A DNA stretch of 64,000 nt, taken from the IMG/VR virus record IMGVR_UViG_3300033463_000025, positions 32,001 through 96,000 of that record; one strand, written 5' to 3'. Numbering within the stretch: position 1 is the first letter of the stretch; every line of letters starts with the position of its first letter. The translations under genes were made by a program, and so were the position numbers. This DNA comes from a virus (Duplodnaviria; Caudoviricetes). Below the pieces are notes generated by a model. It worked only from the letters and a program-made list of their open reading frames with translations, was not told the DNA's origin and ran no database searches. Of the stretch, positions 626 to 61,454 are shown piece after piece.

Positions 626-1780
626 TTAGAATACTTCATCCAAAGTATTTACAGCCAAATATCCTTCTGCCTCGGCAAAGTGGATATAAGTGTCGAGTGT
701 GATTTGTATGCTTGCGTGTCCCATAAGAGCCGATATTGTTTTTATATCAACCTTATTGCGGAAAAGCCTGTTAGCAAAAGTATGTCTAAGAGAATGTGTA
801 GCTCCTTTGTTAATTTTTGTGTTCTTTATTATACGCCTAAATGTACGGTCATACTGCTGTGGCGCAAGAACGCCGCCGTTTTTAGCACATACAATATACT
901 CGCTATTTGGAAATTTGTCACACATACGCTTTAAGGCGGCTTCAGCGGCTTTATTTAAAGGGACTCTCCTATCGCCAGAATATGTTTTTGTTGATGTTAA
1001 TATCGTTTCATATCCTGTGGCGTTACCATCGTCATCGCGTGTTTTAACCGTTTGTGCTGACTTGCTAATATGAAGAATGTGGTTATCCTTATCCCAATCT
1101 GTTTTCTTTAGTGCAATTATTTCACCACGCCTTGCACCAGTGTTGAGCTGAAGGATATAAGCATCACCATATAAATATACGGCTGTTTCAGAATTTAGAT
1201 ATAATCTTTGGCTTTCTTCAATAATAAGCTGTGCTTCTTTGTCAGTGTACCAAACCATTTCTTTCTTTTGAAAACTTGACTCGGATGGTAGCTTAACCCC
1301 AACCATAGGATTACAGGAAATATGCTTTTGTGCAAAAGCGTGTTGCATAACCATATTTACTCCGTCACGAGCCTTCTTTACTCTTGAATAAGAAAAGCCT
1401 TGTTTCTTAATATCGTTCAGCATCTTTTGAATATCGCTTGTTTTTATTTCGGAAATCCGCATCATTCCAATGTAAGGATAAATTTGATTCTTGAACGTTC
1501 CCTCAAGAGTGTCATAGCTCGACGCTTTAATCGTAGGTTGCTTATAAAGAACAAGCCATTGTGAAGCGTAGGTTTCAAACGATGTGATTAATGGGTCAAT
1601 ATGAGCTTCAGCATCAAACTGATTCATCTGTTTTTGAACCGCCATTTTTGTGTCGCCAGTAAAATAAATAATCTCTGGCTTACCATTTGCTTTGTATCTA
1701 CCTGTCCTTACTCTGCCATAATATTTGTCACCTCTCTTATAAATACTGCCTGTTCCTTTTGGTCTTCTTGCCTTTGCCAT
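626..1780 (-). CDS. int: tyrosine integrase
   Basis: N-terminal RRPKGTGSIY arm-binding motif, TGARRGE, HSLRHTFA, MGHASIQITLDTY; start moved to ATG at 1780 with RBS AAAGGAG. Confidence 0.95.
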   Translation of the reverse strand: MAKARRPKGTGSIYKRGDKYYGRVRTGRYKANGKPEIIYFTGDTKMAVQKQMNQFDAEAHIDPLITSFETYASQWLVLYKQPTIKASSYDTLEGTFKNQIYPYIGMMRISEIKTSDIQKMLNDIKKQGFSYSRVKKARDGVNMVMQHAFAQKHISCNPMVGVKLPSESSFQKKEMVWYTDKEAQLIIEESQRLYLNSETAVYLYGDAYILQLNTGARRGEIIALKKTDWDKDNHILHISKSAQTVKTRDDDGNATGYETILTSTKTYSGDRRVPLNKAAEAALKRMCDKFPNSEYIVCAKNGGVLAPQQYDRTFRRIIKNTKINKGATHSLRHTFANRLFRNKVDIKTISALMGHASIQITLDTYIHFAEAEGYLAVNTLDEVF

Positions 1781-1966
1781 ATTAACAACTCCTTTGCAAT
1801 AAATATGTAAAACAAGCATATTTTACGGATAGTGCTACAAAACTCAATCTGTAGCACTATTGTAGCACTATAAGTTGACAACAGATAATACTACTTGATA
1901 AACTTGCCAAAAGTCGGTAATTATATAATTTGATAGAAAATTAGAATATATGTTCTACTATCTATC

Positions 1967-3722: not shown

Positions 3723-3934
3723 TAATTTCCCTCATCATTATTATCTACCGACACATATAAGCCACAATGACATTCGCCAATATAGCCATCGGCAACCTTA
3801 TCTTTGAAGTCCTTACACATACATTTTGTATCTTCATTCTTAATTACTCTACACGGGCAAAAACCATCGTTGTCAGCTAATTTATCTCTTATCTCTTTTA
3901 CATAATCCTTGTCTGAATTTAATACAATTTTCAT
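3722..3934 (-). CDS. ferredoxin:thioredoxin reductase catalytic-subunit-like protein
   Basis: CPC...CMC...CHCGLY cysteine pattern. Confidence 0.85.
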   Translation of the reverse strand: MKIVLNSDKDYVKEIRDKLADNDGFCPCRVIKNEDTKCMCKDFKDKVADGYIGECHCGLYVSVDNNDEGN

Positions 3935-4443
3935 ATCATTATATATCCTCCCATATTGATGTATTTCGCATATTGATTATCGCTGGCTAATTTAACGCCG
4001 AGAGTATAATCAAAACGTGAATCACAATTTGGAATAAACCGCCCAAATTTAATAATGATGTTATTTGTCATTTGCAAAATATTGAACGCTTTTTGATAAT
4101 TTTCTTTTATCTCGTCTTCTGTATAACCTGTATATATAATGATATAATCATTATTATTGTGGTTATATCGTAGCTTTGAAATGAAATCAATTACATTTTC
4201 AATATCGTCAAAAGGTTCTAATCCACCGAATACAACAGCTTTTGTAATCGGATTGTTTATATACCTTTTGACTAAGCTATCAATACTTATCTCAATATCG
4301 GGAGTGTTGGCAAGTGTGCTGTTCTGGCACACTTGCTCACCACTTTCCTTATCGCACTTAAAAGAACACGAATGACACAGCACCAACATATTCGGCTGTT
4401 TGTAATTTACGAAATCCTCATCAATTATGCCTTTTACTTTCAT
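3931..4443 (-). CDS. nrdG: anaerobic RNR activating enzyme
   Basis: CSFKC...CQN, GGLEP, IYTGY, KFGRF, SDNQ; adjacent to nrdD. Confidence 0.9.
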   Translation of the reverse strand: MKVKGIIDEDFVNYKQPNMLVLCHSCSFKCDKESGEQVCQNSTLANTPDIEISIDSLVKRYINNPITKAVVFGGLEPFDDIENVIDFISKLRYNHNNNDYIIIYTGYTEDEIKENYQKAFNILQMTNNIIIKFGRFIPNCDSRFDYTLGVKLASDNQYAKYINMGGYIMI

Positions 4444-8697: not shown

Positions 8698-8925
8698 GCG
8701 GTGTAATACATATCAACATAAAAAGGAGTAAAAAATGGATTTAGATAGCATACCTGTATATTACACAGATTTACCGCAAGATGAGTTGAAGCTACTGCTT
8801 TATTATAATCAAATACAACTAAGCAATTCTAAAACAGAAGAGCTAAAGCATTATTATCTGCAAAAGATAAAATACATATCTTCGCTAATAGAAGAATAAC
8901 AAACTAAACAAATGTATTACACCGC
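8698..8925. repeat. 14-bp perfect inverted repeat enclosing the small gene
   Basis: GCGGTGTAATACAT (8698-8711) / ATGTATTACACCGC (8912-8925). Confidence 0.85.
8735..8899 (+). CDS. 54-aa counter-oriented small protein (absent from the ORF track)
   Basis: AAGGAG RBS, MDLDSIPVYYTDLPQDELKLL...SSLIEE*, TATAAT at 8686; fills an intergenic gap. Confidence 0.65.
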   Translation: MDLDSIPVYYTDLPQDELKLLLYYNQIQLSNSKTEELKHYYLQKIKYISSLIEE

Positions 8926-34095: not shown

Positions 34096-34892
34096 TTATT
34101 GACTTATGTTAAAATTTGGATTATTATTTACCCATTTATTGTAAACGAATAATTTTTCTGTTACCTTAAATTGATTATCTTTGTTTCTATCGAGAGTCCT
34201 TGTAAAAGGCTTCTCCCAAATAGCAACAAAGTCATCGGGAGCAACTTGTTCTGAAATAAACATCAAATGGTTTTGACTTACAGTTCGTGCATATTCCCAA
34301 AACGCTTGACTATCAAACACCATTTTGCCATAACCTGTAGTACCGTTGTAAGGTGGGTCTGCGTAAATAACACAGCCTTCTGGTAACTCTACATCACGAT
34401 AATCTCTACAAATGAATTGTGCATCCATAAGTGTAGCCATATCCTTGAGTAAAGATTTCTTGCTTTGTGCGGCATAGTTTGTACCGCCCTTATTACGAGC
34501 ATAACCGCCAAACCATTTACCGCCGAAGCTACAGCCGAATCCAACAAAGCCAGCTAACACCTTATCATCGTTTTTATTGGCTCGAATGTTTTTATAATCT
34601 TCTTCGGATATGTAATCAGGAAGCTCGTAACCGTTCTGAACACCCTGTAACATCGCTATCAGATATTCATGGTTATCGTTCAAAATCTTGTGTTTAAATG
34701 ATGTTAGTTTACTTTCAACAGAACAAGTGCCGCAAAACAAACTGACTAACTCACAGCAGTTTTGCCCCCCCCGTTAGGCGGGAAATAACACTCGCTATTG
34801 ACTTGGAAATTCTTGATTTCCCGCCTTGATAACGCATCTATTTCCTCCGCTATTCTTTTTGCTATACGACTTTTACCGCCTAAATACTGCAT
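34096..34892 (-). CDS. Dam-like (D12-class) adenine methyltransferase, frameshifted at G8 (OFF), two alternative N-termini
   Basis: MQYLGGKSRI (ATG 34892) and MRYQGGKSRI (ATG 34837); C8 at 34765-34772; body LVSLFCG...SFGGKWFGGY...YADPPY. Confidence 0.9.
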
Positions 34893-37217: not shown

Positions 37218-37724
37218 TCATTTTATTTTTCTTTCAACAACAACTATGGTATCATTGTGCCAACCGCCGTGTGGGACGAGTAACACTTCTTCAATTTCAA
37301 ATCCGTATTTCTTTCCTATACCGCCAGAGTTCCAGCTACAAGTAATAACCTTGCCATTCGATTTTACTATTCGCCCTATCTGTTCTTTTTGTTTAGACCA
37401 GTAACTTGCCTGTGTGGTCTGCATATTCACGGTATAATTCAGTTGTTTATAACACTCGCTCACCTGCCGTGGTGAGAACGGCGGGTCATATAAAACCATA
37501 TCAACAGAGTCATCATCAAATAAAGCCAAAAAGTCTGTAGCGTCCAAATGATAATCTGTATTGTACTGTGTGTCTAAATCATTAGTAACAGTAGCGAGTT
37601 TATTCTTATTAGCAAAAGGGTCGATTATAATGCCCCCCCCGATATGCCGAGCTAACAGCTCTTTAATCGGTGGAACATCAAATGTGTTCTTGCTCGGCAT
37701 AGCCCATTTTCGGCTTATTTTCAT
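37218..37724 (-). CDS. small amino-DNA methyltransferase with in-frame G8 tract (ON)
   Basis: IIDPFAN, LYDPPFS; C8 at 37633-37640 encodes IGGGI; ATGA overlap with the metK stop. Confidence 0.85.
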   Translation of the reverse strand: MKISRKWAMPSKNTFDVPPIKELLARHIGGGIIIDPFANKNKLATVTNDLDTQYNTDYHLDATDFLALFDDDSVDMVLYDPPFSPRQVSECYKQLNYTVNMQTTQASYWSKQKEQIGRIVKSNGKVITCSWNSGGIGKKYGFEIEEVLLVPHGGWHNDTIVVVERKIK

Positions 37725-38684: not shown

Positions 38685-39432
38685 GCAACATTCCTCGCTT
38701 TATTAATTCGTTCTTTAGCAATCTCATACATCTGTAAATCGTTTTCAATACCAATGAATCTTCTTTTGGTATTGATGCACGCCTCGCCAGTTGAGCCGCT
38801 ACCCATGCAGTTATCAAGGACAACATCATCCTCGTTGGTATATGTATTTATTAACCATTCTAAAAGTGCAACAGGCTTTTGCGTCGGGTGAAGTCTGCTA
38901 CCGTCCCTTGAATAGCTCAATATCGACAAAGGATTTCTCGCTCCGTCAAGCGACTCAGTATAAGCTACACCTCTATCGCCGTAGTTATCAGAAAGACTAC
39001 CGTTTTTAGTTTTCTTATATGGTGTTGAATACCATAGCTGTTTATTATATGTGGGTTTCTTTTTATAGAAGATTGCAATTTCCTCATGGGATTTCAAAGG
39101 TTTCACATTAGCATTAAGAAAATCAGAGCCACGTTGTTTATCCCATATAAGGTTATAACGCCACATCTTTTTATTTGATAACATAAGGTCTGCCATAAAC
39201 AAACCATCGCAAAACAAAGCTATACAACCGTTCTGTTTGATAATTCTGTTGTACTGTTCCCATAGCTTTTCAAATGGAATAACAGTGTCCCATTTATTTC
39301 TTGTCGTTCCGTATGGAAGGTCGCAACAAATCATATCAATACAACCGTCAGGGAGTTGGCTCATAACCGATAAACAATCTTGTCGCCAAAGGCTTACCCC
39401 CCCCGACTCAGAAGATTATTTATATCAAGCAT
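38681..39432 (-). CDS. N4/N6 (beta-class) DNA methyltransferase, frameshifted at G8 (OFF)
   Basis: AAGGAG RBS + ATG 39432 gives MLDINNLLSRGG*; C8 at 39397-39404; other frame QDCLSVM...DLPYG...HPTQKP...LDNCMGSGST. Confidence 0.88.
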
Positions 39433-39718: not shown

Positions 39719-39743
39719 ATCGTTTCCTTATATTTCTATTGAC

Positions 39744-41275
39744 TTATGTTATAGATTTTAATAAATGGGCTATGACTTCAACAGTCCAGCCGTTACCTAA
39801 ACATTTATATGCTTGTGAGTTGCTAATCACACTAAAGTCATACCATTCTGGTACTGTCTGCAACCGCATACATTCTCTTACTGTTAGTTTACGAATTATG
39901 TAAAAGCCATCAGACAACTTAATCGGATATGTTTTTCCTTTAATTGTTATCTGTCCATTGACAACTTCGTAAACCGTATATACTTTACCATCGGCAAAGC
40001 TCTTAGCTTTTATAGGTATATCATCTTGCCATTCACACGGTTCAGCATAATGTAACGGATTTTGTGTATTAATCGTTACAGCATACAGCCCTGTCTTACC
40101 ACCAAGACCACCACCATTAGCAGACAACGTAACAGATTTGCCATCTTGCGAATATACCCTCATCGCTTGAGAATTATTTGTTTCTCCATTCGATGACGGC
40201 ATACATCCTACCTGTTCAGCTACCATGCTTTTACAGCCTTTTTCTATAGTATGGCTCACATAGTTCCCTATGTTTTCTCCGCTACCGTTTTTATATCCTG
40301 CTGTTAAGCAATAAGATTTATCGTTCTTAGTCATTCCCACTGGCTCTGCAACACCACTCGCGCCATATGTTGAAGTGTATTTACAGATGTTTGCAATACT
40401 CGTTTGTTGATATTGTGCCTTAATAGTTTGTGACTTTCCTTCACCAGTCGTATTCACTGGTTCAATCGTTCGGGCAACAACGTCGCTCGTTGGATTAGAT
40501 GCTAAACAATATGCTTTATCTTTTACACCAACTCTACGATTGCTTAAATCACCAACCATTGAAAACGCTTTAGGTAACGCAACAGGCTCAACCGCCATAT
40601 TTCGTTGATGCCGCTCTATGGTGTTCCACGCAACCGCACCGCCATAAGCTGTGGTTAGCGTCCAGCCTTTTTCGTTGCTCGTCAAATCATCGGCGTTATT
40701 TTCGAGAATATCTCTTAGTAATATTCCTCTATCCTCTGGCTGTTCTATATCCGCCTTTTGATATGTACCATCTTCTTGACGAATACCAACCCAATACAAC
40801 CGCTGACGGTTTTGAGCTGAAACAAGTGCAGAATTTATACAAATCGGCTCAAATCCAAATGTGTCAGAAATGCTGTCATAAATAGCTCTTGACATTGATT
40901 TGTTGTTTTCGTAAAGAAAGTATTTCGGTTTTGCTTCTTTAATAGCTCTTACAAACTGGCTAAACAATTCCCAGCCCATACCGCTTGCTTCTGTTTCGCG
41001 GTTGTTCTTTTGAGCGATGCTCCAAAAAGTACAGGGCGAACCTCCGATAAGATAATCAATACCGTCAAACTGCGTATAGTCTGCATCAAATACATCACCA
41101 CACTGGATGATACTCGGAAAGTTATGCTGGCTAACTTGAATAGCATACTTATCTATCTCATAAGCATAATAGTCTTTGACTTCTATACCAAGTCTTTTGA
41201 ACGCCAACATACCACAAGACATTCCATCAAATAAACTAAGAACAGATACCCCATCTTGTGATGAAATATCTCTTT
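39744..41275 (-). CDS. C5-cytosine methyltransferase with long repetitive variable region; no in-frame start before motif I
   Basis: VLSLFDGMSCG, EID, GGSPC, YENN, QNRQR, RLQT, GNGW; upstream frame reaches TAA without an ATG. Confidence 0.92.
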
Positions 41276-41416
41276 CATTACAATAATGTTAGTTACGATT
41301 GGCTTATAATCTGACTTTCTATAAATCGCACACAACTATCAATAATTGTAAGAAGAAAATAACTAACGGAATTATGGGGTGTTTAGTAATATGAATCAGG
41401 ATAAAAGAGATATTTC
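41263..41416. promoter_or_regulatory. candidate invertible switch carrying the RBS and ATG of the C5 MTase
   Basis: 13-bp IR GAAATATCTCTTT (41263-41275) / AAAGAGATATTTC (41404-41416); inversion gives in-frame MNQDKRDISSQDGVSVLSLFDG. Confidence 0.65.
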
Positions 41417-41443: not shown

Positions 41444-41472
41444 ATTATAACACTATTTATAACATAAGTCAA
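41444..41472 (-). promoter_or_regulatory. sigmaA promoter for the methylation operon
   Basis: TTGACT-N17-TATAAT; the -35 lies inside a perfect 17-bp motif. Confidence 0.85.
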
Positions 41473-41477
41473 TAGTT

Positions 41478-59759: not shown

Positions 59760-59975
59760 TTATTCAAGATATTTTGTTTTAAGCTCAACGGGATTCGCCG
59801 CCTTTCCAAGTTTTTCCGCTTTATCATCTACCAGCTTATATAAGAAATATTGACTTCTCTCTATTTTGGAAGTAACAAAATAAGTTGTTCCGTTCGTATG
59901 GTACGTTTCCCACACAATCTCTGTCTTCGGTATTCCCTTAATGGCTTTATTCGGAATAGGGATGCCATCTATCAC
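59760..59975 (-). CDS. hypothetical protein
   Basis: 71-aa ORF between the recombinase and mazF. Confidence 0.55.
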   Translation of the reverse strand: MIDGIPIPNKAIKGIPKTEIVWETYHTNGTTYFVTSKIERSQYFLYKLVDDKAEKLGKAANPVELKTKYLE

Positions 59976-60904
59976 TTAGCTACCCCCTCGGCATAACTGA
60001 ACACATCATTGACAGCTTTAATATGAATTTGCGGGTCAGTAACATTCGCGTTCTGACATCCTGCCTGATATGCCATAGTGATAAGTTCACGCAGGTCGTT
60101 GTTATCAAGCAACATCATGGGCGAGTCTGATTCGGGTGAATAGGTTTTATCACCAAAGATATAATCCTTCCAAAAGTCACCCATATCAGAAGTGTACTTC
60201 TCTGTAGCCTCACGGTCAACGCCTGTATAGCGTCTTGTTACAGCTTCACTTGAATGATTAAAGCCACGGCTTACAATCTGCATAGCATTTGGGTCTGTCT
60301 TATGAAGCTCAATGCTGGTTTTACCAAACGTCTTTCGGGAGCTGTGTGTGCCTAAATTACGTTCGATGTTCAGCTTCTTCATAACGTCCTTCAGCGCATA
60401 CATAGCACCAGAGTAGGACAACACAGAACCTTTGTGCGTTCCAGTAAACTGATAGAACACTTCGCGCTTGTAATCGTCGGTCGCTGGGTCATAACCAACA
60501 GCACAGAGATACTTGCCAATAGCAATCTTGACAGCCTCATTGATTTTTGGGGAAGCATACTTGCCTGTTTTCTGCTCTTTGATAGCCTTCAAGTTTTCTC
60601 TGAAATTACCCGTTTGCGGATTAAAGAAATCTTCCCACGTCAGCTTGCACATATCAGAAAAGCGTCGTGCAAGGTTATAAGACGTAACAAACAGAAGATA
60701 GTGAATCCACTTGTTATTCTGTTCAAAGTATTCTACCACACGCTTAGTGTCTTCGATAGATAACTCGTGAACCTCACAGCTTTTTCCTTTACACTTACTT
60801 GCTTTCTTAGCAACTGGCGTTTCTTCATGCTGAGGGAACAGCTCAATAACATTCCCTCTTGTAACTGTATTCGGATTATAATTTACAATAGCTGGTGCTG
60901 GCAT
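59972..60904 (-). CDS. second tyrosine recombinase with intact catalytic residues
   Basis: ARRFSD, KEQKTGK, HSSRKTFG, NHSS...RRYTG; AAGGAG before ATG 60904; promoter TTGACA-N17-TATAAT at 60935-60963. Confidence 0.92.
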   Translation of the reverse strand: MPAPAIVNYNPNTVTRGNVIELFPQHEETPVAKKASKCKGKSCEVHELSIEDTKRVVEYFEQNNKWIHYLLFVTSYNLARRFSDMCKLTWEDFFNPQTGNFRENLKAIKEQKTGKYASPKINEAVKIAIGKYLCAVGYDPATDDYKREVFYQFTGTHKGSVLSYSGAMYALKDVMKKLNIERNLGTHSSRKTFGKTSIELHKTDPNAMQIVSRGFNHSSEAVTRRYTGVDREATEKYTSDMGDFWKDYIFGDKTYSPESDSPMMLLDNNDLRELITMAYQAGCQNANVTDPQIHIKAVNDVFSYAEGVAK

Positions 60905-61029
60905 ATCCTTCAGCTCCTTTCTTAGATTGACTGCATTATACCACAAGGAATAACATTTGTCAATAGGTTTATTGAGTTATTTTATAAAAAGTTTTTCACA
61001 TACATGAATCAAATTTTCCATCAAGCGAC

Positions 61030-61200
61030 TTTTAAACTAAGTTAAAAAAAACGCTATATAGATGTAATATATAATTAATTTATATAGAATACTCTATTAG
61101 TATATAATCATATCTAATATAATCATATACTATATAACCTATTATCAACTATAAGATTATTAACTAATATAATAATTATCTATTAAGTTGATAATAGGTA
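61030..61200. other. very AT-rich non-coding segment with a 14-bp inverted repeat
   Basis: ACCTATTATCAACT (61137-61150) / AGTTGATAATAGGT (61186-61199); TATAATCATAT twice. Confidence 0.6.
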
Positions 61201-61454
61201 CGTCACCTCTTTTTACAATTTTTCCGTATTTTGCAAAATTTCAGTTAAATGAAATGGCTGTTTTATTGTAGAAAGTTTACCTCCCTATCAGCTTCGCCCA
61301 CCCCTCTCGTTCCTCTGTGGCGTTCATATTTTGGTAGGGCACTCAACTTTTCCGTTCAAAGCAATTTAAAATGGAAAGTTGAAGTTCGCAAATATATGAT
61401 TATATCCTATATCATAGGATAGTTCGTTAATTCTATAACAAACTTTTTCAGCAT

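Follow-up and report, generated by a model that had tools for sequence, protein, structure and literature searches.

A putative inverton carrying the translation start of a phage C5 DNA methyltransferase

We analyzed a 64,000-nucleotide stretch of viral DNA (the window). The virus record from which it comes is complete, measures 143,758 bp, and carries direct terminal repeats; the window covers its bases 32001-96000. Our results indicate that the element at 41263-41416 is very probably an inversion switch, working or recently working, that sets the translation start of a C5 DNA methyltransferase (methylase) and has been caught in its OFF orientation. The features of this DNA support the classification of the element as an inverton, "partial intergenic" in Chanin's terms, that would carry the translation-initiation region of the methylase. 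The support for an inverton at this position comes mainly from the relatives of the phage, as described below.

The methylase gene and the adjoining inverted repeat

The phage has a GC content of ~36%, and its minus strand carries nearly all genes. The fixed body of the C5 DNA methyltransferase lies on that strand at 39744-41262 and matches both PF00145 (145.6 bits against a cut-off of 22, with profile positions 2-322 of 324 covered) and TIGR00675 (125.4 against a cut-off of 100.65). Motifs I, IV (with the catalytic Pro-Cys), VI, VIII, IX, and X are all readable in its translation, and a long variable region separates motifs VIII and IX. The frame is intact over 514 codons, being open from the TAA at 41291-41293 through motif I (~41243-41223) to the stop codon at 39744-39746. 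An in-frame scan from 41290 down to motif I revealed no ATG, GTG, or TTG, which bears out the claim of an earlier reading made from the sequence alone (hereafter the sequence-only reading) that the gene lacks a start codon before this motif. The first canonical in-frame start is the ATG at 41222. Because this codon sits inside motif I, a product initiated there would be devoid of the AdoMet-binding motif. Public gene calls begin the methylase even further downstream, giving proteins of 488 or 492 amino acids.

The region between motifs VIII and IX (window 39900-40720) comprises ~270 amino acids and contains recurring short units. A methylase with such a repeat-unit region may be multispecific, and one switch would then control several m5C specificities.

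The 5' end of the methylase frame contains the gene-proximal arm of an inverted repeat (41263-41278, perfect core 41263-41275), and the distal arm is found at 41401-41416 (perfect core 41404-41416). The repeat is perfect over 13 bp and can be extended to 16 nt at 94% with one mismatch, and the whole element measures 154 bp. Between the perfect cores lies an inner segment of 128 bp (41276-41403), which would be invertible by analogy with the relatives and which is present here in the OFF orientation. The proximal arm ends 19 nt before motif I. On the plus strand, opposite to the gene, the inner segment holds a hidden translation start at 41376-41393, composed of GGGGTG (41376-41381), 9 nt, and an ATG (41391-41393). 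We inverted the segment in silico and obtained an in-frame N terminus that starts with MNQDK and continues into motif I. The repeat, the hidden start on the opposite strand, and the in-frame outcome of the flip had all been proposed in the sequence-only reading, and each was reproduced here. An in-frame Shine-Dalgarno sequence with an ATG is present solely in this flipped state, as generated in silico, and the resulting N terminus resembles the MQDK... N termini of fixed-start homologues that have no inverton. In the OFF orientation, an out-of-frame ATG (41277-41275) adjoins the proximal arm and opens a 31-codon frame on the minus strand (41183-41277), which is +1 relative to the methylase; related elements, when start-less, have out-of-frame ATGs at the equivalent place.

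A fixed promoter-like site is located outside the repeat, beside the distal arm, at 41444-41472 on the minus strand, as had been claimed. It consists of TTGACT, 17 nt, and TATAAT, with a TG before the -10 hexamer, and is a near-consensus site of the sigma-70 type with a score of 11 of 12.

A 14-nt motif starting with the -35 hexamer of this site occurs in 13 copies at no more than two mismatches on both strands of the window, where 1.3 are expected. The sites linked to it include 39736-39752, 41459-41475, 20151, 34099, 51152, 58174, and others. A perfect 17-bp inverse copy overlaps the methylase stop codon, such that a 17-bp inverted repeat brackets the whole gene with its arms 1.7 kb apart. 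The 14-nt motif probably represents a promoter or operator element present in repeated copies.

We estimated how often repeats of this kind arise by chance. Perfect repeats of at least 13 bp with a spacer of 30-400 bp number seven in the 143.7-kb genome, compared with 1.5 ± 1.1 in Markov-1 random genomes. With ~1.5 expected per such genome, a 13-bp repeat on its own proves little, and it is the relatives that carry the argument. What is remarkable is its placement, 19 nt before motif I in a gene that lacks a start. A perfect repeat of at least 11 bp with its proximal arm 5-60 nt before motif I was found at 13 of 140 homologous loci, compared with 21 of 3560 positions drawn at random from the same DNA, and the spacers in those 13 repeat-bearing loci all measured 120-129 bp.

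Orientation of the element in related phages

Viral contigs and genome contigs supplied 160 related loci, to which we added more from contigs encoding homologues. Nineteen of the best 120 protein homologues were called as starting downstream of motif I, and no canonical start before motif I was present in thirteen loci among the 161 loci and the window examined. Positionally equivalent elements occur in several lineages of large gut/rumen phage contigs, with perfect arms of 10-15 bp, a spacer of 110-129 bp, and a proximal arm that ends 8-26 nt before motif I; the repeat with a spacer of ~110 bp is that of a further locus, L194. The arm sequences are unlike between lineages, and their inner ends are alike (ATAAAAA or ATGAAAG). 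The DNA similarity between the inner segment of the window and those of the other lineages was not above that of shuffled sequences, and the segments could not be aligned. For this reason, the homology of the switch rests on its position, its geometry, and the gene that hosts it. Among 80 relatives from JGI metagenome contigs, none was start-less and none had a repeat arranged in this way; lineages with the inverton form a minority.

The sequence-only reading had suggested a search for the flipped allele in related genomes, and both orientations were found in three related lineages. In each of these, independent assemblies contain inner segments that are exact reverse complements of one another between colinear flanks. 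In the ~170-kb family (contigs of roughly 145-181 kb), a segment of 127-129 bp has one orientation in nine loci (L039, L041, L046, L047, L049, L052, L053, L055, and L062) and the exact reverse complement in five (L045, L048, L054, L056, and L146). A tree constructed from the flanks only has at least four orientation changes, three of which are forced by well-supported branches. This number is equal to that obtained with shuffled labels (4.3), and we therefore conclude that the segment has been switched repeatedly in this family. The start-bearing orientation offers a TTG with a weak Shine-Dalgarno sequence just 3 nt away, which is in frame one way only.

In the second lineage, L192 and L193, which come from a 157-kb contig and another assembly, have the segment oriented such that it supplies the gene with an in-frame ATG, and the resulting N terminus, MCNKN..., matches intact homologues. 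Two loci from two other runs (L179 and L180) carry the exact reverse complement of this segment and have no start, with an out-of-frame ATG only. The flanks of the two pairs are one or two SNPs apart. The difference between the ATG-bearing and the start-less pair directly displays the mechanism originally put forward, namely inversion of the translation start, and both orientations also occur in the two further lineages.

The third lineage comprises L001, L178, and L282 in one orientation and L281 in the opposite one, again as exact reverse complements. Elements of this type lie at 2796-2947 in L001, 1056-1206 in L281, and 114-261 in L002. The L001 lineage and L002 have no in-frame ATG, GTG, or TTG in either orientation; in the Shine-Dalgarno orientation, a GGTGG-like motif is followed after a few bases by an in-frame ATA or ATT, which occupies the position of the ATG in the window. 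Because these loci are without a canonical start either way, a simple ON/OFF reading is not universal. These copies may either be decaying or be using weak non-canonical starts. L002 is the closest relative of the window phage among the retrieved viral contigs and is in the same orientation, with ATA, not ATG, as its hidden start. A further relative, L087, gained an in-frame ATG and an N terminus starting with MNKNN when flipped in silico.

Among the assemblies on record, the window phage itself is found in the OFF orientation only. Its other assemblies call the same truncated methylase, and three assemblies agree. An exact-word scan of viral and metagenome contigs with the proximal arm and its flank returned no further match, nor did a megablast search of deposited phage genomes with the locus as query. 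Flipping of the window copy itself is what we infer from its anatomy and from the inversions observed in the three lineages. A Lachnoclostridium MAG contains one of the relatives, and two related records have been assigned to the proviruses.

Proposed mechanism and competing interpretations

We investigated the predicted folding of the leader. No orientation-specific terminator was predicted in either orientation, and both the minimum free energy (MFE) and the centroid folds leave the arms unpaired with each other in both orientations. The leader folds somewhat better than shuffled sequences (z = -2.35). The sole terminator-like hairpin predicted in it, at 41244-41271 on the minus strand, has 12 pairs formed by the proximal arm and the fixed downstream flank, is followed by a U-rich stretch, and falls within the first methylase codons. 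This hairpin is identical in both orientations and might affect translation or recombination. Because the promoter lies outside the element, the arms are unpaired, and the hairpin is common to both states, ON and OFF differ in whether an in-frame translation start is present. Control at the level of translation should leave the transcription of downstream genes unchanged. This had been suggested in the sequence-only reading and agrees with the absence of a predicted orientation-specific leader terminator.

The phage encodes three tyrosine recombinases, the third of which spans the record ends. A divergent tyrosine recombinase of 324 amino acids from a TTG (59972-60946, minus strand) is a candidate invertase, as named in the sequence-only reading, and a second, integrase-like one of 397 amino acids (626-1819, minus strand) is an alternative candidate. 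No serine recombinase (PF00239) past the cut-off was found in the phage genome (best score, 13.8 bits against 23.3), and one of five related inverton-bearing records has such an enzyme. Homologues of the 324-amino acid recombinase with 23-31% identity are encoded ~12-19 kb from the methylase in related large phages. They are present in all nine inverton-bearing records where findable, with five of five in the further set of such records, yet also in four of five inverton-less phages, and co-occurrence is therefore not discriminating. A comparison of the 324-amino acid protein with solved structures gave no sequence match.

We propose that the promoter remains fixed upstream of an invertible piece, one strand of which holds a Shine-Dalgarno sequence, an ATG, and the first codons (about five), whereas the opposite strand holds an out-of-frame ATG. 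In the OFF state, as assembled, the good start faces away from the gene, and ribosomes without an in-frame start before motif I would yield no active enzyme. Inversion, probably catalyzed in trans by one of the phage tyrosine recombinases, would produce the ON state, in which the gene would read MNQDK... into motif I. The likely benefit would be a population in which phages with this m5C modification and phages lacking it coexist, which would hedge between two kinds of restriction enzymes, those that cleave unmethylated DNA and those that cleave methylated DNA.

The most serious competing interpretation is a fossil or one-off inversion that has left the element locked OFF and the methylase silent and heading for decay. 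Arms that are still perfect over 13 bp, a hidden Shine-Dalgarno sequence and ATG that are intact and in frame, a 514-codon frame without a stop in which the catalytic motifs are all kept, and the repeated switching of related elements make this unlikely, although OFF is the sole orientation recorded for the window phage, L002 shares that orientation and has ATA at the hidden start position, and no recombinase is tied to the switch. Inversion would not be needed at all if translation of the methylase began at an in-frame ATT (41267-41265), or if ribosomes that had started at the out-of-frame ATG (41277) shifted into its frame, with the repeat acting as an RNA structure in the leader. ATT and ATA starts are permitted under genetic code Table 11, they are the sole in-frame start candidates in the L001 and L002 elements, and the folding energy of the leader would be compatible with a structured RNA. 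However, no Shine-Dalgarno sequence lies at a usable distance from the ATT, the arms are unpaired in the predicted folds of either orientation, passage from the frame of ATG 41277 into that of the methylase needs a net +1 nt in the absence of a slippery site, and DNA inversion itself is proven in the relatives. We consider translation without inversion quite improbable. The sequence-only reading had listed two alternatives of this type, neither of which is favored by our data: an RNA fold-back with an ATT start, for which the arm-arm stem is unused in the MFE and centroid folds, and slippage at a G4 run. The latter run is located downstream of the out-of-frame ATG, where one extra G would join the ATG frame to the methylase frame, and was rejected on account of its length of only 4 compared with the evident G8 tracts of the phage.

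A chance inverted repeat beside a gene that has lost its start by mutation or assembly error seems to us barely credible. The ~1.5 perfect 13-bp short-spacer repeats expected per genome of such size and composition would allow for the repeat as such, but its position, its spacer length, and its hidden in-frame start are common to the elements that flip in relatives. In addition, repeats of 13 bases are too short to mislead an assembler, the three assemblies of the phage agree, and independent samples with flank SNPs oppose the view that the elements of the relatives are assembly artifacts. An inversion switch remains our preferred explanation. Two other ideas were discarded: a terminator like that of cwpV, as none specific to OFF is predicted, and, for the ~170-kb family in its start-less orientation, a +1 shift at the stop codon of a four-codon mini-frame, as the P-site codon could not re-pair.

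Known switches and neighboring methylases

Phage-borne inversion is exemplified by the G segment of Mu and the C segment of P1, which are kilobase-sized and are inverted by the serine invertases Gin and Cin to give alternative tail-fiber C termini. The window element would resemble these systems in being a phage-borne, recombinase-driven inversion that gives two kinds of progeny. It differs in that no serine recombinase passed the cut-off, in the length of the segment (~150 bp), and in its target, an enzyme of DNA modification.

Among described switches, the closest in anatomy is cwpV of Clostridioides difficile, in which a fixed promoter precedes a 195-bp invertible leader element that is flipped by the distant tyrosine recombinase RecV (PMC2784873). 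As in cwpV, a short invertible element (195 bp in cwpV, 128-154 bp here) is situated in the transcribed leader downstream of a fixed promoter, control is exerted after transcription start, and the recombinase is encoded far from the switch, as are the candidates here. Both have a low-GC setting, and C. difficile is a Firmicute; we infer from the promoter type and the one Lachnospiraceae MAG that the host of the window phage is also a Firmicute. The cwpV element excludes the reading frame and acts via an OFF-specific terminator (PMC2784873). In contrast, the window element is phage-borne and holds the Shine-Dalgarno sequence, the start codon, and the first codons, which points to control of translation initiation, and it has no terminator of the cwpV type specific to OFF, the same arm-plus-flank hairpin being present both ways.

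Partial intergenic and intragenic invertons have been reported in gut bacteria by Chanin et al. (PMC10028968) and Milman et al. (PMC9881135). The window element shares with the partial intergenic ones its short repeats, one arm inside and the other outside the coding sequence, an inversion that would alter the encoded product, and the occurrence of both orientations in sequence data, in this case in relatives. Most of the partial intergenic invertons described there are long and shufflon-like and swap homologous gene parts (PMC10028968, PMC9881135), whereas the window element is small, swaps nothing homologous, and would just supply or remove a start. The words methyltransferase and methylase do not occur in the text of PMC10028968, and the passages of PMC9881135 available to us deal with cellular restriction-modification (R-M) and BREX genes and with phage tail genes, with no phage methylase case among them.

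Phase-variable methyltransferases of bacteria include phasevarions based on repeat-tract slippage and the Type I hsdS "epigenetic invertons" (PMC7394358, PMC7672463). Like these, the window element would provide stochastic, heritable switching of a methyltransferase via a local DNA rearrangement, and the phage also has three G8 runs. Unlike these, which are cellular N6-adenine systems, and unlike hsdS, which swaps target-recognition halves and so alters specificity, it would switch an orphan-looking phage C5 enzyme on and off via its start codon. The one paper on viral invertons that we found lists 16 candidates, with methyltransferase and methylase absent from its text, and our literature searches yielded no described phage methylase with its start codon on an inverton. 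Bacteria have provided many well-known cases of invertons and of phase-variable methyltransferases, but descriptions from phage genomes are very few. In this respect, the element would show phages hedging over their own DNA modification by means of a minimal cassette, in which only the ribosome-binding site and the start codon move. It also has a bearing on annotation. Gene callers give a shortened methylase that looks "intact" and begins downstream of motif I, as for the homologues noted above, and such switches and their true ON/OFF state are therefore invisible in current annotation. Finally, this family of elements offers a small, portable, translation-level DNA switch together with several natural ON/OFF pairs, among them SRR20662458 and SRR20632253 versus ERR3393536 and the samples of the ~170-kb family.

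Three G8 runs are found on the minus strand, at 39397-39404, 37633-37640, and 34765-34772, where 0.06 are expected, and all three are in or at the 5' ends of neighboring DNA methylase genes. The run at 39397-39404 has a TAA directly after it and is placed just past the AAGGAG-type start of an N4/N6 methylase, which looks as if it were switched off by tract length. Judged from its DNA, the phage appears to vary four DNA methylases independently. A broader and more tentative idea, which we regard as possible though on balance doubtful, is that large gut/rumen phages possess a combinatorial phase-variable methylome. A dedicated phage tyrosine recombinase would flip a compact start cassette, with arms that have an ATRAAAR-like inner end in common across lineages, and thereby switch a C5 methylase that may be multispecific; poly-G tracts would switch three neighbors. 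One genome could then give rise to up to 16 epigenetic phage types, which would hedge between classical restriction and the methylation-dependent kind.

Three more perfect inverted repeats of 13-14 bp, with spacers of 185-263 bp, are located at 8698-8925, 3933-4145, and 61117-61405. One of them is intergenic, another lies directly upstream of the gene for the 324-amino acid recombinase, and their arms are unrelated to those at the methylase. These repeats are possible additional invertons.
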